In this document: positions 41,701 to 60,462 of the stretch, piece after piece
Layout: every line of letters begins with the position of its first letter
How positions within the stretch are numbered: position 1 is the first letter of the stretch
From: Oculina patagonica
Taxonomy: Eukaryota
Assembly (NCBI RefSeq): GCF_052425735.1
Contig: NC_135759.1
Span: 1,860,001-1,924,000 of the forward strand
Length of the DNA: 64,000 bases
Reading direction: 5' to 3'
Position numbers and translations under genes: made by a program
Notes under the pieces: generated by a model
Seen by the model: only the letters and a program-made list of their open reading frames with translations
Database searches by the model: none
What the model was told of the DNA's origin: nothing

Positions 41701-42287
41701 ATTCATCTTCGGCATCTTTCTCATCCACCTCTCGTTCTGTCCTGTGTCTGTCATCACACGAAAGAAAAGCTGATTCTCAAAAAATCTGCCACAAAAGGAA
41801 ATTGACCAAAAAAATATGAAAACCATATATCGAAAGTTTCTTATTCTAAAATTTTATCATACGTCTTAATTCAGAGCTACAAAGAAGTTCCTCCTTTTGA
41901 GTTATTGATACTGTTCTTACAGTACCTCTTTCCACTAGCGAAATTTTACAAAATTCCTTCGCGGCGAAAAGGTAGCGCGAATCCAGAACAGACTCCAATC
42001 GAGAGTGGGTTAATTCTAGATTACTATTAATTAACTATTACAACATTCATTTTTAAAATAGTTTCCCAAGCCGACTAAGCTAACTAAACGTCGAGTGTAT
42101 CTTTCAGTAAACAAAACATGCCGTTATGACGCCGGAAATCCAGCTCACGCATACTATACCCCGTGACTCACGCAAACCTCCGACTTACGTGCTACTTCAG
42201 TCATTCCTTTCTAAACATTTTTTTTTACCACCACCGTACCTTTCTACCCAAAAAACTCATGAAACCGCCCGGTTTTAACCTGTTTTA

Positions 42288-42858
42288 AGTAGTATAGGAG
42301 TTGGGGGTACGAGATCATAAAAATTTTTATAATCTCTTACATCCCCAACTCCTATACTACTGCACAGCACTGGATTCAAAAAATAGAATCAAAAATAGAA
42401 TCAAAAAATAGAATCAAACATGGAATCAAAAATGAAATCAAAAATAGAATCAAAAATGGATTCAAATATTGGAATCAAATATTGGATCCAAAACTGAAAT
42501 TCAAACCCTAGAAAACCAAGCCTGTAAAACCAAGCCTGAAAAACCAACCCTAAGTCAACCCTAGGTTCAAAATAAAAAAAACTTCTTATACTCTTTTTCA
42601 AACTTTTTTTATACTGCGTTCGAATGGGATTGTCTTATATGGGTCCACTTGCTACCAAGACTGTACTACATTGCTCACAAAACCATCGTGTATTTCGCAT
42701 ATAACGGGCTTTTGTGCGCCTTATAGCTTTCATTTTGTCTTCTTTGGTAAACCATCTCTGGTATCGGCCATTAACAATATTATCATTCCAAAACATCAAT
42801 TGTTATATATTAATGACACAATATATTAATTTCTTATATCATTAATAGTGCGTTTAAA
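42288..42858 (+). repeat. Left terminal inverted repeat (571 bp)
   Basis: Reverse complement of 58981-59545 apart from a few substitutions, a 7-bp deletion and one extra AAACCAAGCCTG-type unit. Contains a terminal hairpin and AAAAATAGAATC-type repeats. Confidence 0.95.
42609..42796 (-). pseudogene. Frameshifted left-TIR copy of the small zinc-finger ORF
   Basis: Mirror of 59043-59237 but lacking 7 bp (AAAAAAG) between 42667 and 42668. Confidence 0.7.
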
Positions 42859-42872
42859 ATAAACTTTGAAAA

Positions 42873-43139
42873 TCAACCCTTGCAATCAAAATCTGAATAC
42901 AATTTCATCAATTTTTTGATTCCTTCAACTTTATCATTTTTAATCATATCATTTAAATTAAAAACAGTATTACTGTTTGATTTATCTCTGAAATAAACAC
43001 CTTTAAAACAAGGAATAATTTTCCTTAAATCATAATCAATGTCTAATATTAGCAATTTATTTTCATAAATGAAATAAATATTATCATCCGTTTTACCTAA
43101 AATTTTAAAAGGATCAAGCCTCGCTCCATCTTTATCCAT
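42873..43139 (-). CDS. Polinton hypothetical protein (88 aa)
   Basis: ORF with ATG preceded by TAATATATAG, like other starts in the element; no recognisable domain. Confidence 0.55.
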   Translation of the reverse strand: MDKDGARLDPFKILGKTDDNIYFIYENKLLILDIDYDLRKIIPCFKGVYFRDKSNSNTVFNLNDMIKNDKVEGIKKLMKLYSDFDCKG

Positions 43140-43408
43140 CTATATATTAACTTAAGATTTTAATTTTTTAAGTAGAATATTTTTGTATTAAAAATGAAAA
43201 TATGTAAACCAAGCAAAGCAGATTATTTTTGACAATATTTAAAACCAAAATGGAATCAAGTTTGAAAACCAAAATGAAAAAACCAAGCCTTAAAAACCAA
43301 CCCTTGCTAAACCCTTTAATCAAAATAAAAAAATCTCTTATACTCTTTTTAAAATTTTGAATTCAAGGTGCGTTTAAAAATCTCTTATACTAGAAATCAT
43401 AATGAAAA

Positions 43409-46400
43409 TTATTGCTTTATATTATAATACCCGTAAGCATAACTTGTTAAGCCATCATCAAGTATATACCGTTTATCATCAAAACAGCTCAGTGATATTT
43501 TATTAATCTCATAGCTTCCAAGTTGATGGCCTTGACTTCTGATGGTTTTCATAGTATGATGCATCTGTGTTTTATTGAATAAGGTCTCTTTGTAGTTTTC
43601 ATGTGTGATATCTTTTTTGATAACGGATTTCTTGATTCCTTTGGCAGTCTTTCCTACTTGTAGATTGTCTTTAATATAAGAATACATTTTTGATCGCAGA
43701 CCGATGAATTCTAAAATAGGAATAAAAGAAGCTTCATCTTTGAATTTACCAATGACTTTCTTGTTTGTTTTATCAAAGAATGGTGATTTTTCAGGGTAGT
43801 CACTGTTATCGAATTTCTCTTTATCATTAAAAAAGTCTTTATATACATCTTCAGCCTGAATTTCATAAGTTAAACTGTCTGTATCTGTAAATAGTAGTTT
43901 GGCTTTGTTTACATACTTCTTTTTTATGTAGTTATAATGGAAATCATACATTAGTGTTTTGCTTAAATCTAATATAGCCATTCCTACATATGAAGGTCGA
44001 TTGAGGGTTAATGTTTCTTTGATTTTATGGACAGCTACTAAGTTTTCATTAAATATTTTGCTACTGACATATGTTGGTTTTGAAGCTAACTTTAATAATT
44101 TATTTTTATTAGTCACTAACCTAACGTCGACTCGCTTCCTCAAATTCTCCATGGTTTTGCCGTATACTGAATTATTCATCAATTTAAAAAAGTCTTTTTC
44201 AAAAGCGTTTTTAGAATTTTTACGTTTTTTAGTATTGTAATCGATATATTGCTTCAACCATGGGGATTGATTAAATTCTAACACTCGATAGACTTTTGTG
44301 AGCTTTAATCCTAGATCTAAATACAACTGAAGATTCCTGTAATGTAATACATATTTTTCTTTATTGTTTAATGTAGGTATCAGTTTATGTACTAAACCTG
44401 ATGATATATTGTATTTTTTAGCAATGTTTTTGCAATAATCCGATAGCATATCTTTAGTCACCTTAACTTTTTCTGCACCCAATGGGTAGTCATTATGATG
44501 ATTATGCAACTCCTTGGGATATTCAAGATCAACCTCCAGTATCAAGCCTTTTTTACTGTCTTCTTTATACTTGGCCAAGTTTGTTTCATCAATTTGTTTT
44601 TGTGTTAACCATCTAAAGCATCCAGTTGGTAGATATTGACTCATAGCATAACCGTATAAATTATTAGCATCAAGATACATGATATACTTTGAGGGCGCCT
44701 TCTCATCATATTTTTTCATATATTTGTTATTAGCTTTCCCATATCGATGAGCTATATACGATATACCTCCTCTCATTCCTTTTTCGATGAATTGGTACAT
44801 ATCAACGTCAGTCATTAGCTCTAATTTGATATCAGTCATTTTAAGCATAGCATCCCACGATAAACCTGGGCTTGTGAAGTAATGACATGGATCAAGTTTA
44901 TAGTATTCTAGGCATGTTTTTCTAAAGCTTTCAAACACATCTGCTAATAATAAGACATCTGATTTTAAATATAAATCATGGTACTCACCCATATTTTTGA
45001 TCTTAAACGTTTTCCACACATTTTCTGCATGCTTATAGTCTTTGTCTGATATATGCTCATTATTTAATATACTGTAAAATTCTTCTTTAGTTGGTAGCTC
45101 TGCATTAAATTTATCAAAGCTATCCATATAGTCATACGGATATATTCCTTTTCTCGACATAAGATTAAGCTTATCACCCTTAAACATTTTAGAAGTATAT
45201 ATTAATTTTTCTCTCGGCAGATTACTTACTAATTTATCAAGACTGGAACTCATAAACTGGAAACTATCAAGAAATGTTAAATGATTACCGAGCATAAATG
45301 CCATATATTTCTCAATGGTATTGGGTATAGCATTGATATTCATCTCTTTAATCTCTCCTTTTTTATTTTTGTATGTATGATTTTTGACAATAGCACCAAT
45401 CTCTTGCATTATAAAATGACTGTCATAACCTCTGAGATTGTGAAAAATTACAGGTATCTTTATTTAATCTGGTTCTATTCTCAATTTAAGATTACAGTCT
45501 TGGTGTGCTGACCCTCTGTATTTACCAGTAATATGGCAATGATCTCTCACTCGTACATCATCATCATTATACACTTTATCACAGATATGACATACTTTTG
45601 CTTGTTGAAATTCTTCTTCATCATCTTTAGTCATCTTTAATGGTTTGTTGAAATGTTTTTTCATTGTATTTTTACAATATTTAACCTCCCCAAGCATCTT
45701 TTCCATGAATTTGTAAACAGCTTTTTCACCTCTGTAAATTTGTAACGGCCTAGTGTATTTATCATCATAAAAACAAACTACTTTATAACCATAACCACAG
45801 TCTGTATGCCTTTGATAAGCTTGAGTATAGGATTTATCATCTTTAGGCTTGCAACCGGAAATCTTTTCGGTTATAGCTTCGAAATCAGCATATATCACAA
45901 ATGGGACGGCTTGTTGCTTATGAAAGTTGTTGAATTTTAGTATATTATTGTCTTTATCAGGCATTTTAACTGCTTGTGTCCCATTGACTTGAATGCAATT
46001 ATCTTTGTGATCGTTTAATACTCTTTCAGAACTGAAACATTGCAAACAGTGCATACAGAAGTGTTTCCTCTCTTTATGCTTTGTTTTAATTTGGTTATAC
46101 ATGAATTTATTGAAATCCTTTATTAGAACATAATGCTTGTTTCCATTTTCAGTTATCAATAATAAATTCATCTGATTGTCATACTTTTCTTTTGATATAT
46201 AGATGGGATATGTTTGTTTGTTTTCATAACCGAAAACATTAATATTAATCTCATTTTGCTTCTCAATTTTATTGTACTGCTTTATTGCTACTGGGAATTG
46301 AACTCCATCATAATTTAGATTCTCAATGTATGATTTATCAGATTTTTTAATACGTTGAGGATATTTATCTTGAGGATTTATGTGTCTGATATGACACCAT

Positions 46401-47170
46401 CTAAAGCATTCATTGTCTTCATTTTTCATATTAATCAATCCCTTAGCACTATTCCTTAGTTCTTGGGGTAGCTGAATATATGATGAGCCTTTTATTGGTT
46501 CATATTTTACAATATTGATATAATGACCATCAACAGATTGTAATACCCAACCTGAGCCTTCTGATATCCATTGTGCAACAAAATTTAATATTTGTTGTTT
46601 AGATGATTGTAGTGATTCTGCAATCTCCAGATTATTGATGATTGTTTGTGGTTTGCAATTAAAATAAGCTGTTTTATATATTACACCATCGCCAGTCATC
46701 TTTGAAAATGTAACCTTAAGAGTTTCAGCAAATTTGAGTCCTTTCATTGCTGATAGCTCTTTTATGATGTGATTTTCTACAGCTTTTCTTGTGTTTTGAA
46801 GCTGTAATAACGGGTCTTTATTATTTTTTATACCAATTTCAAAAGACTTTGTGTAGCCTTTCATAGCTTTAGCGACTTCCTCTATCTTTGTCCTTGGTAA
46901 TGGTAGTGGGGCTGTTTTTATAGTCCGTGGCATGGGTTTAGGCTTGTAATCATCCCTAAATTCAGGAGGTGGTTGAATGATATTTTCCTCATAATCTTGA
47001 ATCATTTGTTTAACGTTTCGTCTTGGGGTAGGCTTCGGAGGCCGTGGTTTGTATATCCTTGGTTGGTTTGCTTTTAGTGATAATATGAGTTGTATAAGCT
47101 CGATTTTAGATAGTTTGTTGAGATCAAATTCGTCCATATTAATATTGGTTGAGATATTTTTTTGTGTCAT
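43409..47170 (-). pseudogene. polB: Protein-primed family B DNA polymerase (pPolB), ~1253 codons, interrupted by one in-frame TAA at 45464-45466
   Basis: ExoI YADFEA; endonuclease VII-like Zn insert CHIC...RDHCHITGKYRGSAH..CN; ExoII HNLRGYD just after the stop, in the same frame; polymerase motifs LDANNLYG, KLMNNSVYGK and TDTDS. Confidence 0.93.
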
Positions 47171-47353
47171 TTTTTGTACTATATAGAATTACCATTTCTT
47201 TAAGTGTCTATAGTAAAAATTATTTTTGAGATTTTTGGTGCGTTTAAAGATAACCAGAAATAATAATATTTTTGGTCACCAATGCAACAATAAACAGCAA
47301 TTAATATACTGTGCTATACAATATATAATTACATAATTTTGCTTTATATGTTT

Positions 47354-47581
47354 TTATTCATCAGCAGGTATCATTTTAAATCTTTTATCTTCTTCAATGG
47401 CTTTAATAACAGTATTTAAAATATGTTTTTTGGTTTTTAAATGGCTCCACTTACCGGCCAAACAGCTATTATAATCACTTATTTCACAAACCCATGGTTT
47501 ATTGAGCATGTATTTCGTCTTTGATTTAGTAATAGCGTTACGTCTGTCTTCATCATTATCGTATTTAAGATTCCTTCCCAT
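47354..47581 (-). CDS. Small C2H2-like zinc-finger protein, paralogue of the TIR ORF; second Cys missing
   Basis: EDRRNAITKSKTKYMLNKPWVCEI...KWSHLKTKKH aligns by eye with EDKMKAIRRTKARYMQNTRWFCEQC...KWTHIRQSH. Confidence 0.65.
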   Translation of the reverse strand: MGRNLKYDNDEDRRNAITKSKTKYMLNKPWVCEISDYNSCLAGKWSHLKTKKHILNTVIKAIEEDKRFKMIPADE

Positions 47582-47670
47582 TAATATAATACTATATATT
47601 ATTTCTTTATACCAGTTATAGTGCGTTTAGATATAAACAGATAATTATTTTCTTTATTAATATATATAGA

Positions 47671-47919
47671 ATGAGTGATATTACATTAAATATTAAACAC
47701 CTACTTGAAGATCAAAGCTCGAACGATATAGCCTTCATTAATAAAATGTGTTGTATTCAGAGCATCCTTGAAGCTAATATTAGTATTATTAAAATGCTAT
47801 CTTCAGACCTTAACAGCCGATCTGAAATATCAAATGAAGACAAAAATCATGCATGTTTAGAGTGTATACCTGAAGACCAGAAACGACGACGTGGAAGGCC
47901 TCGTAAGGATCAACGTTAA
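47671..47919 (+). CDS. Small protein with a C-terminal AT-hook
   Basis: RRRGRPRK motif; ATG preceded by TAATATATATAGA. Confidence 0.6.
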   Translation: MSDITLNIKHLLEDQSSNDIAFINKMCCIQSILEANISIIKMLSSDLNSRSEISNEDKNHACLECIPEDQKRRRGRPRKDQR

Positions 47920-48397
47920 ATACATATTTATTCAGTTTACGGTTTTAGCCATAAGTTATAAATGATTAATGACTAAAAGATGGTTCCACAATGTTCTATT
48001 ATGATAACAAAAACATAGCAACGCAACTATTTACTTTTTGATAGCATAAGGAGATTATTGTATGTTTTTTTTAACCAATCAAAAGCTACATATTTTGATT
48101 CACAATTGTGAAAATATTTTGTGAAACTTTATTCATTTTGTGAAATATTTTTGTGAAATATTTTTTTGAAGATGTAAGAACTATAGGGGTTCCCCATGAA
48201 AATAAGTCATCATTACTTTCCAAGGTCATCATGCAGTCGTGTGATTTCTATTGACCAATCATATTTCAACAAGTAAAAAGTTTTTTATATATAAACTTTT
48301 TGAGTAAAATTTACTCAAAAAGTTTACTCAAAAAGTTTATTCTAAAATTTACTGCCAAACACAGCTGTGCCGTGAAGTTATGTGTGTTATATATATA

Positions 48398-48961
48398 ATG
48401 GTTTGTAATTCTGAAATCCACGATGAATTAAAAATTTTAAAAGAACCTATATGCCCTTATTGTGGTCAACTATTAGCAGAAGGTGATAAGGCTGAGTTGG
48501 CTGAGCCATGCTGTAGTAAGCAGGATATGTCAAATCAAAACGGTATAAATGTTTGTATTAATTGCGGTTTGGTTCATGGTTCTATTTATTACAATGAGTA
48601 TTTCGATTTTTACGAGAACATACACAAGATATGGCGTAAAAGCATCTATCATCGTAAATACCACATTGAGGCTGTTTTAAACGATTTATGTATTAAAAAT
48701 GGAGTTCAATTGTCTCATAATCAGCGCGATAAGATTTATAAAGTGTTTCATGAGATCGATACTATTCTTCCATCTATAAATAAAAGAAGAAAGAGGATGA
48801 TCTCAACGAAATATATTATAAGACAGCTGTTTAAAATGCTCGGTATCCCATACAATTTCATCTGTGTTACTAAATCAAAAAAAACACAAGCTTTTAATGA
48901 TAGATATTGGGCTGAAATTTTAGCATTAAAATCGTCCCAGATCGCACGGTTTATTTGGTAA
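48398..48961 (+). CDS. VLTF3-like (poxvirus A2L/NCLDV late transcription factor 3) protein
   Basis: N-terminal Cys clusters (CPYC, CC, CINCG), then YHRKYH, RKRMISTKYIIRQLFKMLG and KSKKTQAFNDRYWAEI, resembling VLTF3 blocks. The likely start is ATG 48398 after TATATATA. Confidence 0.7.
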   Translation: MVCNSEIHDELKILKEPICPYCGQLLAEGDKAELAEPCCSKQDMSNQNGINVCINCGLVHGSIYYNEYFDFYENIHKIWRKSIYHRKYHIEAVLNDLCIKNGVQLSHNQRDKIYKVFHEIDTILPSINKRRKRMISTKYIIRQLFKMLGIPYNFICVTKSKKTQAFNDRYWAEILALKSSQIARFIW

Positions 48962-49439
48962 ATTTATCATCATACTTGAGCAGATACCTATCGATTATTG
49001 GACCGGTATCGCATATGTAGTCGTCAATGCTTTTCATTGTATTTAGGATGCTAGACGGATTATAATCACCACTTCTCATAGCGCCTTTAATAGAGTTCAA
49101 AAGGTGTTGATAGCTTTGGTAAGCATATATGGAGTTATGAATTTTTAGTTCGAGATTCTTATGTATCATCAAAGCCTGAATCAATAATGAAATTGTTGAT
49201 ATTGTGATCAAAGCAATACCACCAGTCGCTATAGAGGAGGCGAATCCGCTTGATGCAAATATGATAGACAATGAATTCCCTAATAATTTCCATTTTTTGA
49301 AACGTTTAACAGCCTGCTTGTAAGCCCAACATTTTCGATGATATGTTTGATAATAAGCTTTCAATTCTATAATTTGGTCTTCAGTAAGTTCGCTTGATAT
49401 ATGGTTCCATGTAAATATGCATTTTCGATGTTTAGTCAT
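48951..49439 (-). CDS. Predicted two-transmembrane protein (162 aa)
   Basis: Hydrophobic hairpin LLGNSLSIIFASSGFASSIATGGIALITISTISLLIQALMI between predicted helical regions. Confidence 0.7.
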   Translation of the reverse strand: MTKHRKCIFTWNHISSELTEDQIIELKAYYQTYHRKCWAYKQAVKRFKKWKLLGNSLSIIFASSGFASSIATGGIALITISTISLLIQALMIHKNLELKIHNSIYAYQSYQHLLNSIKGAMRSGDYNPSSILNTMKSIDDYICDTGPIIDRYLLKYDDKFTK

Positions 49440-49471
49440 ATATATTAGTTATATATGATTTTTTTGTTTTA

Positions 49472-49588
49472 TCATTTTGTCATTTTAGCATTGCGCTTGT
49501 TCTTTATTGTGTAATACAGCTTCCTAATGTTTTGAATTAATCTCTCAATAGAATCAATAATATTGCTAACCAATTTCACTGTTTTCAT
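49472..49588 (-). CDS. Putative 38-aa basic amphipathic peptide, below the ORF-track length cutoff
   Basis: MKTVKLVSNIIDSIERLIQNIRKLYYTIKNKRNAKMTK* fills the intergenic gap and has ATCTAA at about -14. Confidence 0.45.
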   Translation of the reverse strand: MKTVKLVSNIIDSIERLIQNIRKLYYTIKNKRNAKMTK

Positions 49589-49625
49589 ATAAGTGAATTA
49601 GATAAAATCGTTGGAGTTAGATAAT

Positions 49626-51764
49626 TTATTCAAAGAATACATCGTATGTTTTATCTAAAAATTGAATTTTATGATAGATGGGCCCATTTATCGGGTATGT
49701 ATTTTTACTAAAACCGATTCTTTGTACAAAGTAATCTGAAGAAATTTTAATGCTAGATGTATTGATATTAAACCCAGAAAATGTTTGATCAATACTCATA
49801 ACATTATTGCAAACAGCGATTCTAAATTGATCCTGTATCTTTGTATACCAGAGATTCATATATTTACCTATATAACCATCTCTAATTTGCTCTGTATATG
49901 AATCTAGATCATAATCGAGGAATAGCTTATTATGCTCCACTTTAACCCACGGAAAACTAAAGCTATCACCATCGATAAATTCAATTTTAATCCTTTTATT
50001 ATCACTGGGCTTATAGTCATATTTAAATGCCATATATATAGTCCAGTCATTGGATTCAGTGATATTTTCATTTAAATTAATTTCAAAATCATTCATAAAC
50101 CCCATATTTGGATTAAAATCGTCTAACATTTTGGTGTTATTAAATACGAGATTACCAATTAATCCAGAAACAACAGCTCCGTTGCTATCTGACATTATGA
50201 ATTTAGAGGCATCCGTTAGATCGAAATAGTACTCAAATATTTCACTATAAAAACTCTTGGACTGTAATAATTTAATCTGATTTTCAAGAGTTGTTTTGAG
50301 AATATTGATTTGACTTACCAACTGTTTATAATTAACAGCTTGATCATCGGTAGTACCTTCTGCAATACCATGAATGGCTTGTGTTTTCATATCAATTGAT
50401 GCATTGAAAGCTATTCTATCATTTTCAACATAATATAGCTGATCGTATATACTGGGTTCAACATTACTTTCATAATTCTTAATCCCATATATTATAATAT
50501 AAGTTTGCAGTTTTGGTACATACAAGTGTCCTGACTTCATTTTTAAAACGATATCGACATAGAGATAGTTGTTGTTATGTTGTTGATACTTATGAACTTG
50601 AGCTATTGTTCGACTATAACCGTTATAAACTCGTGTAGTTACTTTATTAACAGTATCAATCAATGACACAACACTGATATCAACACTATTCTCATTTATT
50701 TCAACTGGAAAATAGAGTTCAAATGCCATTGTATAATAATTAATTGGTATAGGGTACATGTTGATACCTAATCTGCTTGAGTAGTAATTTTTCGAACTAT
50801 CGAGAAGTAATTTTGTATCTATTACCTTTTTATTGATTTGATGAAGAGGATTTGGATGATGAATTAAATCTCCAAGCTCGATATCATTCTCTTCACTAAG
50901 TTGATTATCACTGTCAATCATTATATTATTGAAAACGTTTCCTTTATCAATAGAGGTAATATGTGAAATGTCAACATACAATTTATTTACACCATCGGTT
51001 CCATATATTGGTTTGCTTAGATTTGTTATGCGATTATCGTTCATATGGAGATTTGCCTGCATCATGTTACTACCGTGAATATTTAGCCTATTTTGTATGC
51101 TCTGAGCTAAGCCATTACCAACGGATTTAGTTAGAAAAGTACTGTCCACATATACCTTCGAAGCCTTACTCTGAATACTGCTGGCTAAAATAGCACCTGT
51201 TTTCTTCGTTAAATATGTATCATCAGCGTACGATTTGTCCGCTTTAAGCGCGTCTCTGGAGTCAATATATTCTTTATTCATTACGTTTGACATATTGCTG
51301 TATCCTTGATCGAAATTCGGAACATTTATTATGCTGTTAAACGTTTGTTCGTCGTTGGTACTTAGATCAGCTTTATCAGCGAGTTTGTTGTTGAGTTCTG
51401 CTTTGACTTTGTTGTCTTCCAACCTCACGTATTCCACATTTGGCAAAGATGTATCGTTATACAAACCGGGATAAAAGGGCTCACTATTGAATATATTACA
51501 CTGGCCCAAATCAAAGTCATTGCCCTTAGCGTCTTTAGTAAGACATTGACGTTTAACGTACCCCTTATTAACTCCAGACGAAAGATCAAGAGCATATGTA
51601 TCGAGATCAGCATCGATAGCTACATCAGCTTGTGTATTTAACCTGAATATCTTTTTGTTATCCATATCGAAATCAGCTCCCAGTTGTTTAAAACCAATTG
51701 CAGGTTTTGCACTTTGAAAATATTTGGTATGCATAAAATCATTTTCGTCATTAATGTACCCCAT
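49626..51764 (-). CDS. Putative trimeric fibre / receptor-binding protein (712 aa)
   Basis: Repeated DM...I..L...D.VN..Y/Q neck-like motifs (e.g. HMNDNRITNLSKPIYGTDGVNKLYVD, DMKTQAIHGIAEGTTDDQAVNYKQL), KADKSYAD/KASKVYVD repeats, a coiled coil and a beta-rich C-terminal domain. Confidence 0.65.
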   Translation of the reverse strand: MGYINDENDFMHTKYFQSAKPAIGFKQLGADFDMDNKKIFRLNTQADVAIDADLDTYALDLSSGVNKGYVKRQCLTKDAKGNDFDLGQCNIFNSEPFYPGLYNDTSLPNVEYVRLEDNKVKAELNNKLADKADLSTNDEQTFNSIINVPNFDQGYSNMSNVMNKEYIDSRDALKADKSYADDTYLTKKTGAILASSIQSKASKVYVDSTFLTKSVGNGLAQSIQNRLNIHGSNMMQANLHMNDNRITNLSKPIYGTDGVNKLYVDISHITSIDKGNVFNNIMIDSDNQLSEENDIELGDLIHHPNPLHQINKKVIDTKLLLDSSKNYYSSRLGINMYPIPINYYTMAFELYFPVEINENSVDISVVSLIDTVNKVTTRVYNGYSRTIAQVHKYQQHNNNYLYVDIVLKMKSGHLYVPKLQTYIIIYGIKNYESNVEPSIYDQLYYVENDRIAFNASIDMKTQAIHGIAEGTTDDQAVNYKQLVSQINILKTTLENQIKLLQSKSFYSEIFEYYFDLTDASKFIMSDSNGAVVSGLIGNLVFNNTKMLDDFNPNMGFMNDFEINLNENITESNDWTIYMAFKYDYKPSDNKRIKIEFIDGDSFSFPWVKVEHNKLFLDYDLDSYTEQIRDGYIGKYMNLWYTKIQDQFRIAVCNNVMSIDQTFSGFNINTSSIKISSDYFVQRIGFSKNTYPINGPIYHKIQFLDKTYDVFFE

Positions 51765-51783
51765 TTTCTGTTAATATGTTAGA

Positions 51784-52419
51784 TTAAATCTTCTCATCGA
51801 AATTTTTTGTTATGAATTTACGTGGTTTATCAATATATAAAAAGCTGAATGGGTCTTTAGTTGCTTGCTCGTATAGCTCTTTTGGAATACTGTTTTCACG
51901 GCATATCAGTGCCCTCTCATTAGCACTTTGGAATTCGTAAATACAGAAATGCGAACAGTTAAGTCTTATGTCTTTTTTCGTTTTAAAATAGCTTTGAGAC
52001 AAATATATCACGCTACAGTTTTTATGTCTCCCTTGTATAAAATAATCGATTAATGGTTTTTGATTTTTATCACAAACATAATCGTCAAATATCACGAGCT
52101 TTTGATTATCATCATTTAGTTTAGAAACAGGAATTATTTGGTCGTTACTAGCTTCAATAATGTTATAACCAGCTTCATCGCTTATTGGTTGGAACACATT
52201 GATAAGATTCTGGTATTTAGACTGGTCTAAATTTTTTGCATATAAATATATTTTATCGAAATATAATAAATTGTAAATCATATGCATTAAAGTATTAGTC
52301 TTTCCCATATTACTCGGAGCGCAAAGTAGCATACGAAAACATTGATTTGGCATGAAATCGTATACTTGTTTAAAGTTCGAGACTATATCGTCTTCAGTGT
52401 CATAATTTGGTATTTTCAT
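51784..52419 (-). CDS. A32/FtsK-HerA-type DNA packaging ATPase
   Basis: Walker A APSNMGKT, Walker B LVIFDD, and QGRHKNCSVIYLSQSYF (Arg finger / sensor Gln region). Confidence 0.93.
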   Translation of the reverse strand: MKIPNYDTEDDIVSNFKQVYDFMPNQCFRMLLCAPSNMGKTNTLMHMIYNLLYFDKIYLYAKNLDQSKYQNLINVFQPISDEAGYNIIEASNDQIIPVSKLNDDNQKLVIFDDYVCDKNQKPLIDYFIQGRHKNCSVIYLSQSYFKTKKDIRLNCSHFCIYEFQSANERALICRENSIPKELYEQATKDPFSFLYIDKPRKFITKNFDEKI

Positions 52420-52443
52420 ATTATATATATCAGTTATATAATA

Positions 52444-52531
52444 TGAAAGACGCCTGAAAGACTAATGAAAGACTGATGAAAGACTTCTGGAAGACTAATG
52501 AAAGACTGATGAAAGACTTCTGGAAGACCGA
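52444..52531. promoter_or_regulatory. 8 x 11-bp tandem array TG(A/G)AAGACNNN in the divergent intergenic region
   Basis: Units start at 52444, 52455, 52466, 52477, 52488, 52499, 52510 and 52521. A regulatory role is inferred from position only. Confidence 0.6.
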
Positions 52532-52556
52532 TAATAATCTACACTAATATATATAA

Positions 52557-53642
52557 ATGAGTCTATTAGCTTGGCAAAAAATTGCTGACCAAAAAGAAGA
52601 AGTTGAGAATCAAATCAAAAATATTAATAATCAAATAATGTCTTCAAAATTGCAAGATGAATTAGGACAAATCAAATTCATAAAAATGTTTAAACCAGTA
52701 ACATCTCGTCTCGACACACAAATTGAAGCAACTAAAAAGTTGGAAAATAAAGGGGTAAAAGAGGGTGATCCTCTTCCAGAATATCCAATTGAACCAGAAG
52801 ATGGGGGTGATGAAATGCCCGATTTTGAACCACCGCCACCAATTAATGAAACTCAAACAGAAGATGAAGATGAATATGAAATGCCCGATTTTGATCCACC
52901 GCCACCCATTGATGAAGCTCAAACAGAAGATGAAGATGAAATGCCCGATTTTGATCCACCACCATCAATAGAACGGAAGAGAAAAGAATGGTCACCTAAC
53001 TCTATCAATAAGAGTAAGCAAAAGGAATTAGATAATGAACGCAAATATCTAGCCGAAGAAAGACGCCGTGTCAATGTTTTGCTTGGGAAATTAAATAAGA
53101 GTGGAAAAAATTATGTTAAAACGGGAAAGTATCGTGGGCTAACATATGATGATCTATTAAAACAATCAGATAATTTTACAAAACAAATTAACAATATTGA
53201 AAACCAGTTGTTATTAACTAAGCAAAAAATACAACGTATGGAGTACAAACGGGTTCCCTTCACATCATTTGATTTACAAGAGAGTTCAAAGAAATTAAAA
53301 AAGACCCCAAAAAGTAAATCTAAAATAAAATCAAAGCCAACTATAGTCAAATCATTATTTGATAAGATAGATGCTATCAGGAAGGACACAGTGCCTGATT
53401 CTGATTCTGATAGAGAAGAAGAGTGGGAAGGTAGTGGACTAGCCCATAATTATAAGGCTATTTATTACAGAGACCCTGAAAAACTTATTGAAAAATTGGA
53501 TATAATTTGTGGAAGCATATCCGCTGGAAATACGAGTTATGAATTAAAAAACCAAGGTCTTACAATAATAGATGAACTGTTAAGAGTGAAAAGAATTACA
53601 AAGCGTCTATATGAAAAAATTTATAACAACTATTTTATCTAA
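52557..53642 (+). CDS. Polinton protein with three acidic/proline repeats (EMPDFxPPP) and a C-terminal AGN-type domain
   Basis: First ORF of the structural block; WEGSGL precedes YYRDPEKLIEKL...SAGNT...IIDELL. Confidence 0.75.
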   Translation: MSLLAWQKIADQKEEVENQIKNINNQIMSSKLQDELGQIKFIKMFKPVTSRLDTQIEATKKLENKGVKEGDPLPEYPIEPEDGGDEMPDFEPPPPINETQTEDEDEYEMPDFDPPPPIDEAQTEDEDEMPDFDPPPSIERKRKEWSPNSINKSKQKELDNERKYLAEERRRVNVLLGKLNKSGKNYVKTGKYRGLTYDDLLKQSDNFTKQINNIENQLLLTKQKIQRMEYKRVPFTSFDLQESSKKLKKTPKSKSKIKSKPTIVKSLFDKIDAIRKDTVPDSDSDREEEWEGSGLAHNYKAIYYRDPEKLIEKLDIICGSISAGNTSYELKNQGLTIIDELLRVKRITKRLYEKIYNNYFI

Positions 53643-53654
53643 ATTAAATATATA

Positions 53655-54422
53655 ATGGAGAAACATTTAATACTTAGTTCATTCAGGGCGAAAAGACAAG
53701 CAAATAATTATAACCAAAAAGCAAATGATTTCACTATTTATCTTGAACAGCCACCTTTTTTGGATCCAAATAAAAATTATGAAATGGCACTGGATGAGAT
53801 TATAACGATGACATATAGTTGGTACAATATCGCATCCTCATTCACTAATACTAAAATAAGATATCGAAAAACCGTTAGTAGTGATACAAGTTTTAAAAAT
53901 ATTGAATTTCCTAATGGAATGTATTCATATACAGACATTGATACTTTTTTAAAAAATACAACTGGTAAAGATGGTGATAATTATCCATTTTCAGTTACGT
54001 TTGATTTATCATTATTTAGAACAATAATAACCATAAAGCCAAATTATGAATTAGATCTATCTGTATCAGACTTTAATTTGATTCTGGGTTTTGAAAAGAA
54101 AATTTTAACTTCAGGGAGTAATATAAGTGACAAAATACCTGATTTAACAAGGAGCGTTGATATGATATGTATTCATTGCGATTTGACTAACAGATCCTTG
54201 ACAGATGAATCCAGAGATGTATTATTTTGTTTTAGTATCATAGCACAAGGCATTCGTAGATCATTCCCTTTCACTCTTCAACCAAGACGACTGAATTTTT
54301 CACCAATTAATAAAAATAGTATTGATTCAATCAGACTATATATAACCGATTCGTATAATCGTCCCATTGATTTAAATGAAATCGATACGGCGTTTCATAT
54401 CGTTATCAAAGAGGTGAATTAA
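53655..54422 (+). CDS. Minor capsid protein (penton, single jelly-roll)
   Basis: 255 aa, beta-rich; YEMAL, GMYS..DI, ILGF, IHCDL and ITD...RPIDLN motifs; lies upstream of the MCP. Confidence 0.8.
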   Translation: MEKHLILSSFRAKRQANNYNQKANDFTIYLEQPPFLDPNKNYEMALDEIITMTYSWYNIASSFTNTKIRYRKTVSSDTSFKNIEFPNGMYSYTDIDTFLKNTTGKDGDNYPFSVTFDLSLFRTIITIKPNYELDLSVSDFNLILGFEKKILTSGSNISDKIPDLTRSVDMICIHCDLTNRSLTDESRDVLFCFSIIAQGIRRSFPFTLQPRRLNFSPINKNSIDSIRLYITDSYNRPIDLNEIDTAFHIVIKEVN

Positions 54423-54441
54423 TCTAAACTAATAATATAAA

Positions 54442-54687
54442 ATGAATCGAGTATACGAATGGTCAAAATTTTATAACCCTAAAAAAGGTTTATATCAATA
54501 TCGCCATAAAGGATCAGGTTTAATAACTAATGATTTATCAAATATCGGACAATATTCTAAAAAAATGATAAAAGATATCAATAAATCACCAATAATCAAA
54601 GCACAAAAGAAAAGTTTAAAAACCGTGTTAAATAGAAGTGAAAAAGCTGGGGATCTTATTTTGAAACGATTAGCACAATTGAAGTAA
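54442..54687 (+). CDS. Small basic putative core protein
   Basis: 81 aa, Lys-rich, YRHKGSGL motif, own TCTA upstream box. Confidence 0.65.
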   Translation: MNRVYEWSKFYNPKKGLYQYRHKGSGLITNDLSNIGQYSKKMIKDINKSPIIKAQKKSLKTVLNRSEKAGDLILKRLAQLK

Positions 54688-54709
54688 ATTATCTAATCTA
54701 ATAATATAA

Positions 54710-55993
54710 ATGAGTTTCAGAAGCATAGAAAATGTTGAAAAAGTTGATTATCTCAGATTCAATCTGCAAACACCCATTATTCAGCCGGCAAATGGCTTAT
54801 ATCAGGAAAAAACAGGGTATATATTCAATATGACCGATCGCTCTTCATGGTTCGATTGGTATAACGGATACTTTATCGTCAAATACAAACTTCAAAAAAA
54901 GGCTGATGGTACAGCTATCGATGCCAATGCTCTACAAACACCTGTGCTAACGTCAACGATAAATGATAGTACAAGTATCATCAATCACATAATGATAACT
55001 TCAGGGGGTAAAAAGCCTTACGATAGTAATAGCCTGCATAAAATCTGTTTCATAAAAGGATTGCTTGAATTTTCTGATGACTATAGCCGTACAGTAGCTA
55101 CCAATTTCAATTGGTATCTCGACGATAGAGCTGTATTAGCGGGCGATTTAAGAACAGCCCCAAAAGTAGGAGCAATTAAAAGAGCTGAATTGTGTTCACA
55201 ATCAAAAGACGTATACGCAATCATTCCGTTAAATAGGTTTTCCATTTTTCAAGAACTACGAGATAAAATGATACCACCTATGCAAATCGAACTAAACATA
55301 ACACTAAATGATGATAGAGAATTTATTTACAGAGTTGGTGGTGCTGAAACACGATATGTGGTTCTAGATTTTCAGTTATGGTTACCACGTTTGAACTTTA
55401 CATCAGCAGGACAAAAATTAGTAAATAATACCTTTTTAAGGCCATCAAAATTTACATATTTAAGAGAGTTCATCAAGCATTCATCACCGACAACGTCAAT
55501 TTCCGGTATATATCAAATTACACCAGCTATTAAAAATGCAAAACATGTTTTTGTATATCTTCAGAGGAACAAGACTAATAATGAATTAGAAAACCCCTTT
55601 ATTTTTGATACTTTTAAAATAAATGCGGGTAATGATGCATGTAAACTTTCTACTTGTCGTTTGCAACTTGGTACTTCGTTTTTTACTCCGGAACTTGAGT
55701 ATGATTGTGATTTTAAACCAAGATTATATAATGACATTCAAGAATATGCATACAGAACCAACGACTACAATACAGGAACTCAGTTAAATTTACAAAATTA
55801 TTCTGAATTATTTCCTGTTATCTATTTCGATTTAAGAAATCATAAGGAATCGGTTACTGATGATCCAAAACAGTTATTGTTTCATTATCGATTAAATGTA
55901 CAAGCTACTGACAATTATATGATTTACGCTGTAGTTCTTTATGAGGAAAGTATCGTAGTTGATAAAATTGGGAATGAACTTATTTTTATGTAA
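54710..55993 (+). CDS. Major capsid protein (double jelly-roll)
   Basis: 427 aa, beta-rich; IPLNRFS.F, LWLPRL, HVFVYLQ, NPFIFD and IYFDL motifs; size and position typical of Polinton MCPs. Confidence 0.85.
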   Translation: MSFRSIENVEKVDYLRFNLQTPIIQPANGLYQEKTGYIFNMTDRSSWFDWYNGYFIVKYKLQKKADGTAIDANALQTPVLTSTINDSTSIINHIMITSGGKKPYDSNSLHKICFIKGLLEFSDDYSRTVATNFNWYLDDRAVLAGDLRTAPKVGAIKRAELCSQSKDVYAIIPLNRFSIFQELRDKMIPPMQIELNITLNDDREFIYRVGGAETRYVVLDFQLWLPRLNFTSAGQKLVNNTFLRPSKFTYLREFIKHSSPTTSISGIYQITPAIKNAKHVFVYLQRNKTNNELENPFIFDTFKINAGNDACKLSTCRLQLGTSFFTPELEYDCDFKPRLYNDIQEYAYRTNDYNTGTQLNLQNYSELFPVIYFDLRNHKESVTDDPKQLLFHYRLNVQATDNYMIYAVVLYEESIVVDKIGNELIFM

Positions 55994-56029
55994 TATTTAA
56001 TCTAACACTATTATATATAGAGCAAGACT

Positions 56030-56533
56030 ATGAGCACAAAATATATTTCAACATATATTCCTCTAACAGAAGGCCAAATAAAAAAGCTAGCCAGAGCAAT
56101 CAAAAATTCAAGTGAAATCAGTTTATTAATTAACAAGAATCAGATCAAAAAGAAGGGTAATACTGAGTTATACCTTACAGAAAGACAAATAACACGTCAT
56201 AATAAAGTAAAAAGTGAGGGAAAAGGCATTACATTGAGTTTATCTAAAGCACAAATAAGTAAAATGCGAAAGGTGATTGGAAAAGGAATTCAAGTCACTC
56301 CTGATAATCAAGGAGGGACAGGAATGCAAATAGAATACCCTTATTATTCACCACAAATCATTAGGAAACAAAGATCAAAAAACGGTGGCAAAATTAAACT
56401 ACCAAATAAGAGAGATGCATTATCTTACAGACCGCCACCATTCATCGGTTCTTGGGGTGAATATGATAAATTTCTTAGAACAGGTGGATTGGTGCTTCCA
56501 AAAAAAAAGATCTTGAAATCAAAAAAAAAGTAA
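56030..56533 (+). CDS. Basic putative core protein immediately upstream of the protease
   Basis: LTEGQI/LTERQI/LSKAQI repeats, several GxG/GG sites, RPPPFIGSW and a poly-Lys end. Confidence 0.7.
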   Translation: MSTKYISTYIPLTEGQIKKLARAIKNSSEISLLINKNQIKKKGNTELYLTERQITRHNKVKSEGKGITLSLSKAQISKMRKVIGKGIQVTPDNQGGTGMQIEYPYYSPQIIRKQRSKNGGKIKLPNKRDALSYRPPPFIGSWGEYDKFLRTGGLVLPKKKILKSKKK

Positions 56534-56996
56534 AAAAACCTACATTTATCAAAAAAGCTCTAAGTAACAATGATCTAATGAGATGGTGTAAGTATTTAAA
56601 TATTAATATCACAGGGATATATAGCAGAGATGAGCACACGCCCAAAAAGCATAGCCCATGCATTATTAATTTAGACACCTATGAAAGTGTTGGTACCCAC
56701 TGGACTTGTTGTGTTCCAAGTGTTAAAAAAGACATATTGTGGTACTTTGATAGCTTTGGAATGCCATACCCAAATGAATTTAAAATGAGAGCTGAGAAAG
56801 ATGGATAAAACAAGTTTTGTATAATAACACACAATATCAGAATATCAAATCAGTACTTTGTGGCTATTATTGTATTTATTTCTTGCATCAAGCATTGGTT
56901 TATGATAGAGAGTATCATGATATATTAATGCAATTATCAATGACTGACACAATGTACAATGAACGTTTTATAAGCAATTATTTCAAAAATATGTAA
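56521..56996 (+). pseudogene. Adenain-type cysteine maturation protease with a 1-bp frameshift near 56805
   Basis: ALSNNDL..W, IINLD...GTHW (catalytic His) and YFDSFG (Asp) in one frame; QYQNIKSVLCGYYC (Gln, catalytic Cys) continues in the -1 frame to TAA at 56994-56996. Confidence 0.85.
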
Positions 56997-57007
56997 TCAT
57001 ATTATAT

Positions 57008-57448
57008 ATGAAATCGTATTGTGTGAAACAAAGAAAAATAACAAATTGCGTACCTAATTCTGAACAATATGTAAAATCAAAGAACGGAAGACTTATGTTG
57101 CGTTGCGTTTGCTTAGAATGCAAAATCATTAAAACCAAATTTGTCAGTGAGAAAAAAGGACGAGGAGTTGGACAAACCATTAACAAAAAGATTGGTGATA
57201 AAATTCCAGGGTTTCAACAGGCTCAAGACATGGCGTCGGCTATCATGGCAGTTACGGGAGCTGATAAAGATCTATTTAAAAAATATTGGCGCGGTGACTT
57301 TGCTAAAGGTATATTTAATAAAAAAAGCGGGATTCAGACATCTAATTTTTGGAAGCCCGCTGGAGCATATAAAAATGAAAATCTCGACCCAAAATGCAAT
57401 TTCAGTGAGTATAAAAATGGAAAATGGATAAATCATTATTGCGATTAA
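57008..57448 (+). CDS. Protein with an N-terminal DUF5679-like zinc ribbon
   Basis: YCVKQR..T...KSKNGRLM....C..C...K.KFV, paralogous to the N-terminus of 57471; KKGRGV follows. Confidence 0.7.
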   Translation: MKSYCVKQRKITNCVPNSEQYVKSKNGRLMLRCVCLECKIIKTKFVSEKKGRGVGQTINKKIGDKIPGFQQAQDMASAIMAVTGADKDLFKKYWRGDFAKGIFNKKSGIQTSNFWKPAGAYKNENLDPKCNFSEYKNGKWINHYCD

Positions 57449-57470
57449 ATATCTAATCAATATATATATA

Positions 57471-58973
57471 ATGTGCCAATCATATTGTCTATCATGTAAA
57501 AAACAAACCAAATCATTAAAATCTAAAAAGGTAAAAGCTAAAAATGGTCGGCTTATGGAAAAATCAGTTTGTCAAATATGCAGGAAGAATAAGAGTAAAT
57601 TTATTAAAGGAGGTGCTATTTCAAAGCGTAAGCCCCCTTCTGCTATTGAATATGACATGAGAGGTTCTGGCATTGATATTCAAAAACACTTATCAAAACT
57701 TGGAGAATTACATATGAGAACACCTACAGGAAAAAAGTACAATTATTGTGGACCTGGTACTAAATTAGAAGAAAGATTAGCTTCTAACGATCCTAAATAT
57801 AAAAATCCAATAAACAATCTTGATAGCATATGTCAACAGCATGATATTGACTACAGTAATTCAAAATCACTAGCTGATAAACATAAGGCAGATGATCTTA
57901 TGCTTAAGAGAATATCAAAAATACCATTTAAAGACCGTCCGTGGGGAACAACAGGGGTACAAGCTTTAATCGCTAGTAAAAGAAAAATCGGATTGGGTAT
58001 AAAAAAAAAAGAAGCCAAAAAACGGAAAACGGCGTTGAGTAAAAATGATTGGTCTCAACAATTAGCCGATGAGTTACATAAACCAATCAGACGAAAATTT
58101 AAAACTAGAAGAGTAATATCAAATGGAATTGACGAGATATGGTCTGCTGATTTAGTTTTTATGGATAAACTTTCAAAATGGAATAAAGGTTATAAATATC
58201 TATTGACTATAATTGACGTATTCAGTAAATTCGCTTGGGCTATACAATTGAAAGATAAGAAAGGTGCATCAATAACTAACGCTTTCAACAATATTGTCAT
58301 TAATGACAAGCGTAAACCTGAATATCTCTGGGTCGATAAGGGATCTGAATTTTATAACAAAACATTCAAGGAATGGCTAAAGCAAAATGATGTTAACATA
58401 TATTCCACTTTTAATGAAGGTAAAGCTGTTGTTATTGAGAGATTTAATAGAACTTTGAAAAATAAAATGTACAAACAGTTTACTATTCAAGGTAATACAC
58501 AGTATCTTGAAATGCTACCAAAAATAGTAAAAGAATATAACAATACAAAACATAGCTCTATCAAAATGACACCCATAGAAGCTTCAAAGAAAAAGAATGA
58601 AGGAACTGTTTACTTTAACCTATACGGTGATATGGAGCCATTATCAGCTAAACCAAAATTTAAGGTTGGTGACAAGGTCCGAATATCTAAGTATAAACGA
58701 ATTGTTTTCGATAAGGGTTATACACCGAATTGGAGTGAAGAAATGTTCGTAATTACTAAGATCCAACATACTAATCCCATTACATACAAATTGAAAGACT
58801 TCAGAGATGAGGAAATACAAGGTAGCTTTTATGAACCTGAATTATTAAAAGCAAAACAGGATGTATTCAGAATTGATAAAGTGATCCGTAGAGACTACAA
58901 AAAGAAACACGCTCTTGTCAAATGGAAGGGATATAATGATGACTTTAACAGCTGGATTCCAATGAAAGATTAA
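57471..58973 (+). CDS. Zn ribbon + parvovirus-type phospholipase A2 + retroviral-like integrase + chromodomain
   Basis: YCLSC...CQIC; PLA2 YNYCGPGT and NNLDSICQQHDIDY; DDE triad in WSADL, WVDKGSEF and IERFNRTLK; chromodomain VKWKGY....NSWIP. Confidence 0.92.
   Translation: MCQSYCLSCKKQTKSLKSKKVKAKNGRLMEKSVCQICRKNKSKFIKGGAISKRKPPSAIEYDMRGSGIDIQKHLSKLGELHMRTPTGKKYNYCGPGTKLEERLASNDPKYKNPINNLDSICQQHDIDYSNSKSLADKHKADDLMLKRISKIPFKDRPWGTTGVQALIASKRKIGLGIKKKEAKKRKTALSKNDWSQQLADELHKPIRRKFKTRRVISNGIDEIWSADLVFMDKLSKWNKGYKYLLTIIDVFSKFAWAIQLKDKKGASITNAFNNIVINDKRKPEYLWVDKGSEFYNKTFKEWLKQNDVNIYSTFNEGKAVVIERFNRTLKNKMYKQFTIQGNTQYLEMLPKIVKEYNNTKHSSIKMTPIEASKKKNEGTVYFNLYGDMEPLSAKPKFKVGDKVRISKYKRIVFDKGYTPNWSEEMFVITKIQHTNPITYKLKDFRDEEIQGSFYEPELLKAKQDVFRIDKVIRRDYKKKHALVKWKGYNDDFNSWIPMKD
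58017..58089 (+). promoter_or_regulatory. Putative -1 programmed ribosomal frameshift signal
   Basis: AAAAAAC (58017-58023), 6-nt spacer, stem 1 CGGC-GTTGAG / CTCAAC-(AATTA)-GCCG, stem 2 TGATTGGT (58046-58053) / ACCAATCA (58082-58089). Confidence 0.7.
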
Positions 58974-58980
58974 CAACATA

Positions 58981-59545
58981 TTTAAACGCACTATTAATGA
59001 TATAAGAAATTAATATATTGTGTTATTAATATATAACAATTGATGTTTTGGAATGATAATATTGTTAATGGCCGATACCAGAGATGGTTTACCAAAGAAG
59101 ACAAAATGAAAGCTATAAGGCGCACAAAAGCCCGTTATATGCAAAATACACGATGGTTTTGTGAGCAATGTAAAAAAGAGTACAGTCTGGGTAGCAAGTG
59201 GACCCATATAAGACAATCCCATTCGAACGCAGTATAAAAAAAGTTTAAAAAAGAGTATAAGAAGTTTTTTTTATTTTGAACCTAGGGTTGAGTTAGGCTT
59301 GGTTTTACAGGCTTGGTTTTCTAGGGTTTGAATTTCAGTTTTTGATTCTAATATTTGATTCCAATATTTGAATCCATTTTTGATTCTATTTTTGATTTTA
59401 TTTTTGATTCCATGTTTGATTCTATTTTTTGATTCTATTTTTGATTCTATTTTTTGAATCCAGTGCTGTGCAGTAGTATAGGAGTTGGGGATGTAAGAGA
59501 TTATAAAATTTTTTATGATCTCGTACCCCCAACTCCTATACTACT
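58981..59545 (-). repeat. Right terminal inverted repeat (565 bp)
   Basis: Reverse complement of 42288-42858; begins 8 bp after the integrase stop codon. Confidence 0.95.
59043..59237 (+). CDS. TIR-encoded small C2H2 zinc-finger protein (64 aa)
   Basis: WFCEQCKKEYSLGSKWTHIRQSH = C-x2-C-x11-H-x4-H preceded by a basic helix; internal paralogue at 47354-47581. Confidence 0.65.
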   Translation: MFWNDNIVNGRYQRWFTKEDKMKAIRRTKARYMQNTRWFCEQCKKEYSLGSKWTHIRQSHSNAV

Positions 59546-60462
59546 GTTTTAACCTTTCAAAAATTAGAGCGTTCGAAACTAAATAAGATCCGTAATCACA
59601 AACAACATACAGCCGTTTACCAGCACTCTTTAAAACTCCTGAAACCCTTCAAAATCAGGCAAAATAAATCTTTGAAATAACCTTTATCAATGTTTCTTAT
59701 TTTTTATTCAGTTCTATAAAATGCCTTTCATACACTACTGTCAAACAAAAATTTCCTCAAAGTTTCAAGACAAAAGAATAACAAATATTTCGTGCACAAT
59801 GTAATTTGATTAAGCCAATATTATCACGTCTAAAAATACTTCAAGCAATTCAGTGAAAACCCGTTTTTTTTTCGTATCAACGAAAACCACTTTCGAATAA
59901 TCAATACATGAAAATAACAATAAGATCAAAAGGAAGAAAGGAACCTTTCTAATTATTTGAAGACTTTCAAAGCCGTGATATTATGCATCCAATCCGCGAT
60001 AAAATTTAATTACAACAAAATCCAAGTTCTCATTTTGAAGTCCATTTTTTTCAGTTGATACCTTTATCCAACTTGTGAAAAATTCCATTCAAGTTCCTAT
60101 TAATACTGTACATTCCCAATGTTTTGCTCAGGTCTTCAGAAGCGTCTTACTAACCAAATCTAAAATAATTCCAAAACATGCTGTACAAACATTCTACTCT
60201 TTGTGACAAACGACTTGACGACCAATTGTTCAGAAATGAAAATCGACACAGTTTTTGCTAAATAAAAAAAAAAGTTTTACGGCGGAGTCAGGCTCAAAAA
60301 ATATACCGCAAGATCACACCCCCATTCATAGTCAGAAACCAGCAAACCATCTAGTTTGCTAAAAAAAACACTGCGTGACATCAATGACGCTACCTTTTTC
60401 ATTTACAAAAATAACTTTAACTTGTCAAAGTAAGTGCAATTTCACAATGGTGAATATCAGTA

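Follow-up and report, generated by a model that had tools for sequence, protein, structure and literature searches.

How a Polinton expresses its integrase is the question raised by this locus. In the window (the whole stretch of 64,000 nucleotides from Oculina patagonica that was analyzed), a phospholipase A2 (PLA2) gene and the integrase gene behind it form a single open reading frame. A preliminary description, made from the sequence alone, had read this state as a homopolymer mutation or assembly error and had proposed that the integrase is normally reached by −1 ribosomal frameshifting. Most copies of the element have two overlapping frames at this junction, a slippery heptamer whose phase matches that of the upstream frame, and no AUG ahead of the first catalytic aspartate of the integrase. 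Judged from this sequence pattern, it is very probable that programmed −1 frameshifting yields a minor Zn-ribbon/PLA2-integrase polyprotein in this Polinton.

The gene pair lies near the right end of an endogenous element with the following boundaries.

42288–59545, no strand assigned: endogenous Polinton/Maverick element, 17.3 kb, with ends AGTAGT...ACTACT
42288–42858, no strand assigned: left terminal inverted repeat (arms I1–I3, 88–99% complementary)
58981–59545, no strand assigned: right terminal inverted repeat, paired with the left repeat, ~570 bp

The available text of PMC8097293 gives terminal inverted repeats, (AGT)2//(ACT)2 ends, and a 6-bp duplication as the end features of Mavericks. 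All three are present here, with the target duplication GTTTTA on both sides of the element (42282–42287 and 59546–59551). The integrase is of the rve type with a chromodomain at its C terminus (Pfam), and an A32/FtsK packaging ATPase is encoded at 51784–52419 (PF04665, E 4e-11). Calls for the capsid, polymerase, and protease are weaker than those for the ATPase, integrase, and PLA2, and profile searches of the element's ORFs identified neither pPolB nor capsid proteins. The ORF at 54710–55993 has no Pfam match; its Atlas look-alike cluster (0.97), with PF21738 on 65% of members and a recognition value below threshold, provides a lead. The family B polymerase candidate (43409–45409) contains the motifs DANNLYG, NNSVYGK, and TDTDS, which are taken to be those of a protein-primed family B polymerase; searches of Pfam, PHROGs, and the PDB gave no match for it, and in the window copy it is split from 45464–47170. 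The adenain/Ulp1-type protease candidate (56578–56808) is just a 76-residue piece in the window copy, with a Peptidase_C57 hit below cutoff (E 0.023).

Several other features of the element were observed. Its polymerase (45409–45464) and protease (56500–57000) regions are disrupted in the window copy, with A-rich runs close to the protease break. Both termini (42288–42361 and 59471–59546) can be folded into an imperfect hairpin of 36–38 bp. Ahead of most intact genes between 52527 and 57470 is an AT-rich TCTAA...TATA(T)A-ATG motif, possibly a common promoter or start signal, and a second small Zn-ribbon (DUF5679-like) ORF sits at 57008–57448, immediately 5′ of the Zn-PLA2 gene. G-x-G motifs (e.g. 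GSG, GKG, GGG, GRG, and GLG) recur across several ORFs within 52557–58000 and are candidate sites for a maturation protease. Elsewhere in the same genome, two co-oriented integrase genes (C2:19109457 and C2:19113306) are 3.85 kb apart and may represent a tandem or nested copy.

The junction is organized as follows in the window copy.

57471–58973, + strand: Zn-ribbon/PLA2 and integrase region, a single 500-codon ORF in the window copy and two overlapping frames in most siblings
57483–57602, + strand: DUF5679-like Zn ribbon (E 3.9e-5, below the Pfam cutoff)
57735–57920, + strand: parvovirus-type phospholipase A2 domain PF08398 (E 2.5e-9)
57990–57998, + strand: Gly-Leu-Gly motif, a candidate viral-protease site; GxG is kept right before the junction in both frameshifted and fused lineages
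58001–58010, + strand: run of 10 A, at which the window copy differs from its siblings; potentially a further place for slipping or sliding
58017–58023, + strand: slippery heptamer A AAA AAC; −1 copies have it in phase, whereas the window copy has it out of phase
58024–58029, + strand: 6-nt spacer between the heptamer and the predicted pseudoknot
58030–58089, + strand: predicted H-type pseudoknot with loops of 6, 0, and 13 nt
58036–58038, + strand: TGA that terminates the PLA2 frame in −1 copies, inside stem 1
58134–58400, + strand: rve integrase core (Pfam match)
58869–58967, + strand: C-terminal chromodomain of the integrase (E 6.4e-6)

On re-inspection, the positions assigned in the preliminary description to the heptamer, spacer, stems, TGA, and the 10 A at 58001–58010 were all exact, and the ORF reads through its 500 open codons as had been described, leaving the heptamer out of phase as assembled. 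Stem 1 pairs 58030–58039 with 58054–58059 and 58065–58068, with a 5-nt bulge; in stem 2, 58046–58053 is the exact reverse complement of 58082–58089. The putative catalytic triad, assigned from the known DDE motif, is presumably D227 (58149), D289 (58335), and E323 (58437, just past the rve match). A −1 frameshift signal is defined in the available text of PMC7618472 by an X XXY YYZ heptamer, a spacer of 5–9 nt, and a 3′ structure. Here the heptamer is in phase with the upstream frame in the −1 copies and in 20 of 21 lineages, the spacer to the predicted structures is 6 nt in the window and 5–7 nt in relatives, and the downstream ORF is in the −1 frame without a start of its own.

Which frame is normal can be read from the window's own family, in which the length of the A-run at 58001–58010 varies between copies and determines the apparent frame. 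The integrase is in the −1 frame in 16 of the 29 closest siblings, in the third frame in 11, and in frame with PLA2 in 2. In those 16 natural copies, the PLA2 frame stops at TGA 58036–58038 and the heptamer is in phase, as had been postulated for a shorter run. For the family as a whole, 70 distinct copies were collected, of which 68 could be assigned a frame. With an upstream run of at most 5 A, the −1 relation holds in 28 of 29 copies; with a run of at least 6 A, the 39 copies divide into 19 in the −1 frame, 16 in the third frame, and 4 in frame. Nearly all copies that depart from the −1 relation (20 of 21) have a run of at least 6 A, and the in-frame state occurs in just 5 of the 68, four of them at such runs. 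Of the 128 integrase matches in the same genome, 118 have a stand-alone open frame of 321–339 residues; in 10, the open frame is of sufficient length to take in PLA2 as well. A degenerate 30-nt pattern matched that genome 149 times, and 98 of the 100 matches listed are identical to the window.

Contigs from other sequencing runs also bear on the A-run. Those from X3, X14, and X2, which come from three studies, each have the shorter run, and the window's form across the site is in none of them, with only X3 satisfying the 31-base bridging rule. In contigs from X10, a sequencing run that may not be independent, the A-run is reduced by 1, 2, and 3 A. At 58001–58010, the window copy is thus an outlier. 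Given the sibling and family frames and the shorter run in X3, X14, and X2, its in-frame state is more likely a homopolymer error of assembly than a working state; it may be a real mutation.

More distant relatives were drawn from 80 metagenome and 3 viral loci, together with loci from the same genome, and were grouped into 35 integrase clusters at 85% identity that range down to about 50% identity. Among viral contigs, a scan with a single protein found nothing, and an alignment scan gave the 3 loci. The cluster counts are for loci that have the anchor motif (16 of L001–L173 lack it, 7 of which were read by eye) and at least 100 open integrase codons (a further 16 loci have fewer). Members in the −1 relation are found in 23 clusters; 9 are in frame only, 1 is in the third (+1) frame only, and 2 are unclassed. 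Heptamers were counted in the 21 clusters in which at least one −1 member is intact, referred to here as lineages.

An in-phase A AAA AAN heptamer is present at the junction in 20 of the 21 lineages, with L105 having no in-phase heptamer. The specific form A AAA AAC is found at the junction in 12 lineages, and it occurs in phase 0 times in 17,622 nt of control integrase coding sequence. The other 8 lineages carry only long runs of 7–10 A. Where a run comprises exactly six A, it ends in the slippery phase in 12 of 14 cases at the junction versus 5 of 26 in the control (Fisher p 1e-4, a value that overstates independence because the clusters are related to each other). Locus L208 has an in-phase G GGA AAC ahead of a retained stem; according to the available text of PMC5009743, A AAA AAC, like G GGA AAC, is among the most shift-prone heptamers on mammalian ribosomes. 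Because both frames are coding at the junction, these motifs are partly due to protein constraint on Lys, Arg, Trp, and Pro codons.

At two loci (L159:11–168 and L169:2343–2512), a Zn-ribbon ORF without PLA2 is immediately 5′ of the integrase; the two are in the −1 relation and an A-run is present, and the shift would thus be retained despite a changed upstream partner. Four Polinton-like PLA2-integrase loci (L204, L205, L207, and L208) are within bacterial MAG records and likely represent eukaryotic or viral contamination.

The predicted pseudoknot in the window, 6 nt downstream of the heptamer, has an energy of about −20 kcal/mol in a simple, unvalidated helix-enumeration stacking model. It is the best H-type fold after the heptamer, and its score was reached by 0 of 300 dinucleotide shuffles (best −13.5) and by 0 of 414 segments taken elsewhere in the element (best −17.6), in agreement with the fold originally drawn. 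The nested fold of the cassette is ordinary (z −0.71), and Rfam returned no family at the cassette, only a chance match. Synonymous variation in the pseudoknot is low (1 of 17 versus 62 of 200 third positions, p 0.027), which is not specific to the pseudoknot because the quiet block extends to 58209. The pseudoknot is nearly invariant within the family, so covariation is not demonstrable, and the pattern for a second pseudoknot subfamily had 0 matches in the same genome. Siblings and distant relatives repeat the −1 frame and the in-phase heptamer of the layout proposed in the preliminary description, and their integrase likewise has no AUG. The siblings are thus not consistently fused, with only 2 of the 29 closest in frame, and the proposal withstands the comparison. 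The pseudoknot part does not extend as far: it is predicted only in the window's family and is without covariation, and some lineages are fused without an A-run.

Other lineages have other predicted structures or none. One group of relatives has a long-range stem of 10–14 bp that begins 7 nt 3′ of the heptamer; across 11 sequences, 96 of its 98 cells are paired, and two pairs are changed on both sides. Compared with 500 shuffles, its percent paired and covariation score were each reached by 0 of 500 and its number of pairs by 154 of 500. Another group has a hairpin of 9–12 bp located 5 nt 3′ of the heptamer; all 36 of 36 cells are paired in the 4 rows of this alignment, a result no better than shuffles. 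Stems of −14 kcal/mol or lower starting 5–7 nt downstream are found at 9 of 12 A AAA AAC sites versus 6 of 100 control positions, the stems having been derived from the same sequences on which they were counted. Such a strong stem is absent from 3 of the 12 A AAA AAC lineages and is found at 0 of the 8 bare A-run lineages, which may rely on unstimulated slippage. Three unrelated predicted folds at the canonical distance of 5–9 nt would be hard to explain by protein constraint alone. On these models, the stimulator appears to have been exchanged at least three times, with some lineages having none.

The integrase frame itself offers few places to start. In 18 of the 21 intact −1 lineages, the first in-frame Met comes only after the first catalytic Asp. 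The same holds for the window, where the first in-frame AUG after the junction encodes M231 (58161), downstream of D227. Near-cognate codons are present at the junction in 6 of 21 lineages, and the window's family has an in-frame ACG and a TTG (UUG at 58035). In many database homologues, gene callers have placed the start at the junction or past the catalytic Asp. Most intact genes of the element have an AT-rich TATA(T)A-ATG context, which is absent from the junction. Two copies (L031 and L047), from a family in which the long stem has decayed, have an integrase-frame ATG immediately 3′ of the heptamer.

Natural fusions also exist. At nine loci (e.g. L127, L128, L136, and L165), PLA2 and integrase are joined in frame through a short linker, and 17 fused proteins are among the 120 homologues listed. 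On a 45-row tree with a midpoint root, in-frame fusions appear to occupy at least four positions: a 7-row clade and, interspersed with −1 lineages, L126, L152, and L156. A search of 10 fused loci, covering 1.8–4.9 kb of each, revealed no additional free PLA2 gene. These natural fusions suggest that the polyprotein may be the functional form of the integrase. Among free PLA2 homologues, the tail retains Lys-Asn in 47 of 58 at the protein level, and 9 terminate exactly there. The fused clade (L127, L128, L136, L144, L165, and L166) lacks the Zn ribbon and begins with M-D-I-H, the sequence just past GxG in frameshifted lineages. At L142:668–730, PLA2 and integrase are in frame with A AAA AAC, and the 5′ arm of the hairpin seen in L134–L139 is lost; this locus, which one of the alignments (A4) leaves out, could be an intermediate toward a fixed fusion.

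Fusions such as these could indicate that the in-frame state of the window is the working one, with split copies decayed or mis-assembled, and nine in-frame-only clusters, mostly with a short linker and no A-run, the 17 fused homologues listed, and the 10 of 128 in-frame matches from the same genome all fit that picture. Within the family, however, just 5 of 68 copies are in frame, four at runs of at least 6 A, and the contigs from three other runs (only X3 bridging) show the shorter run and the window's form in none, so that we give this reading very little credence. The long A-run itself provides another way to fuse the two proteins, if the polymerase were to add an A or the ribosome were to slide on poly-lysine codons, the heptamer and stems then being incidental. 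Ribosome sliding on A-runs is noted in the available text of PMC5009743; a long run is also present in the window's subfamily, the L031 family combines its decayed stem with a 9-A run, and in the 8 lineages with only 7–10-A runs and no strong stem slippage may be a real route. Against slippage as the general explanation, the 29 family copies with runs of at most 5 A keep both the heptamer and the pseudoknot, and the −1 relation holds for 28 of these copies; polymerase slippage would be independent of phase, yet six-A runs are phase-locked in 12 of 14 cases; and the G GGA AAC of L208 is not a homopolymer. As a general account, slippage on the A-run is therefore unlikely.

Separate translation of the integrase, from a non-AUG codon (UUG 58035 or the ACG) or a weak AUG further downstream, reached by leaky scanning or on a short transcript, would suit the in-frame ACG and TTG of the window's family, the gene-caller starts at the junction in many database homologues, and the ATG in the two L031-family copies. 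It is quite improbable given that near-cognate codons are in just 6 of 21 lineages, that in 18 of 21 the catalytic Asp precedes the first AUG, that the element's own start context is absent from the junction, and that the phase-locked heptamer and stems are left unexplained. A small intron or alternative splice connecting PLA2 to the integrase is conceivable in a eukaryotic host, where transcription of the element is presumably nuclear. No pyrimidine tract precedes the integrase frame, however, and a phase-locked heptamer would not be maintained by splicing; of the four joints seen in four putative RNA runs, 0 are at the junction, a weak result because contigs break at the A-run. We regard splicing as scarcely credible.

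If programmed −1 frameshifting is the mechanism, ribosomes on one mRNA would initiate at the Zn-PLA2 AUG (57471), and the majority would terminate at UGA 58036–58038, producing a basic-tailed protein of ~188 residues. A smaller share would pause at the pseudoknot, slip −1 on A AAA AAC, and continue through the integrase and chromodomain to give a product of ~500 residues. The PLA2 of parvoviruses is thought to disrupt membranes at entry, according to the available text of PMC8502044. By analogy with parvoviruses, PLA2 would be a virion protein, and a fusion to it would package the integrase. The abundance ratio of PLA2 to fusion, virion packaging, and the role of PLA2 in entry are all inferred. 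The PLA2 moiety could take the integrase into the virion, where the element's own cysteine protease would cleave at GxG to release it, as in Gag-Pol; we would put this delivery and release at about an even chance. We are similarly divided on a broader proposal, namely that a Gag-Pol strategy evolved independently in a wide Polinton lineage, present in corals and in metagenomes of freshwater, soil, and sediment, in which Zn-PLA2-integrase would be made by a −1 shift, few integrases would be packaged and freed by protease, the stimulator (pseudoknot, long-range stem, hairpin, or bare A-run) would be swappable, and moves to a fixed fusion would be repeated.

Polintons are regarded as ancestors of many eukaryotic double-stranded DNA (dsDNA) viruses. 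If correct, the proposed shift would add a rare recoding case among eukaryotic dsDNA viruses, convergent with the gag-pol logic of retroviruses, and it would make a route for the integrase into the virion testable. Annotation would also be affected, as copies scored as frameshifted and hence dead at this junction may have the normal arrangement. The set of lineages would represent a natural series of exchangeable stimulators after one heptamer. The mechanism is a known one, −1 frameshifting, in a gene pair and virus group for which no earlier report was found: our literature search, whose coverage leaves out most subscription papers and GenBank and Repbase annotations, found none on a PLA2-integrase frameshift, and the available texts of PMC8502044, PMC11131425, PMC11161782, and PMC3671162 do not mention one. 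In the literature surveyed, as far as its text was available, expression and delivery of the Polinton integrase are apparently undescribed.

Among known systems, the closest in gene content are alpha-adintoviruses and Polintons with PLA2X, which, according to the available text of PMC8502044 and PMC8097293, share with this element terminal inverted repeats, (AGT)2//(ACT)2 ends, a 6-bp duplication, an rve integrase with chromodomain, a packaging ATPase, and a parvovirus-type PLA2; the same text treats the integrase as a separate gene and mentions no recoding. The PLA2 domain here is the parvovirus-like PF08398. Adintovirus PLA2X has a C-terminal pX-like domain (PMC8502044 and PMC8097293, available text), whereas the window protein has an N-terminal Zn ribbon instead, and its PLA2 frame stops ~12 residues after GLG, compared with an extension of ~100 residues in three PLA2X sequences from the paper supplements. 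Hypothetical −1 frameshifts have been proposed for the adintovirus penton and hexon-adenain (PMC11071296); they concern the same virus group but other genes, and in the available text they are software predictions without cross-lineage evidence and with no mention of PLA2-integrase. In tailed phages, which are also dsDNA viruses, the −1 shift of the lambda G-GT tail chaperone is conserved and sets the ratio of short to long virion-assembly proteins (PMC5009743, available text), but on bacterial or archaeal ribosomes and in unrelated genes. Retroviral gag-pro and gag-pol and astrovirus ORF1a/1b differ in that the Polinton, known here from sequence, is a dsDNA virus-like element without reverse transcriptase and its upstream partner is Zn-ribbon/PLA2 rather than Gag. 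They nevertheless have in common an A AAA AAC or G GGA AAC heptamer, a spacer, and a 3′ pseudoknot or stem-loop, and in each the enzyme is read in the −1 frame after a presumed structural protein; with gag-pol, the likeness extends to the enzyme being an rve integrase.
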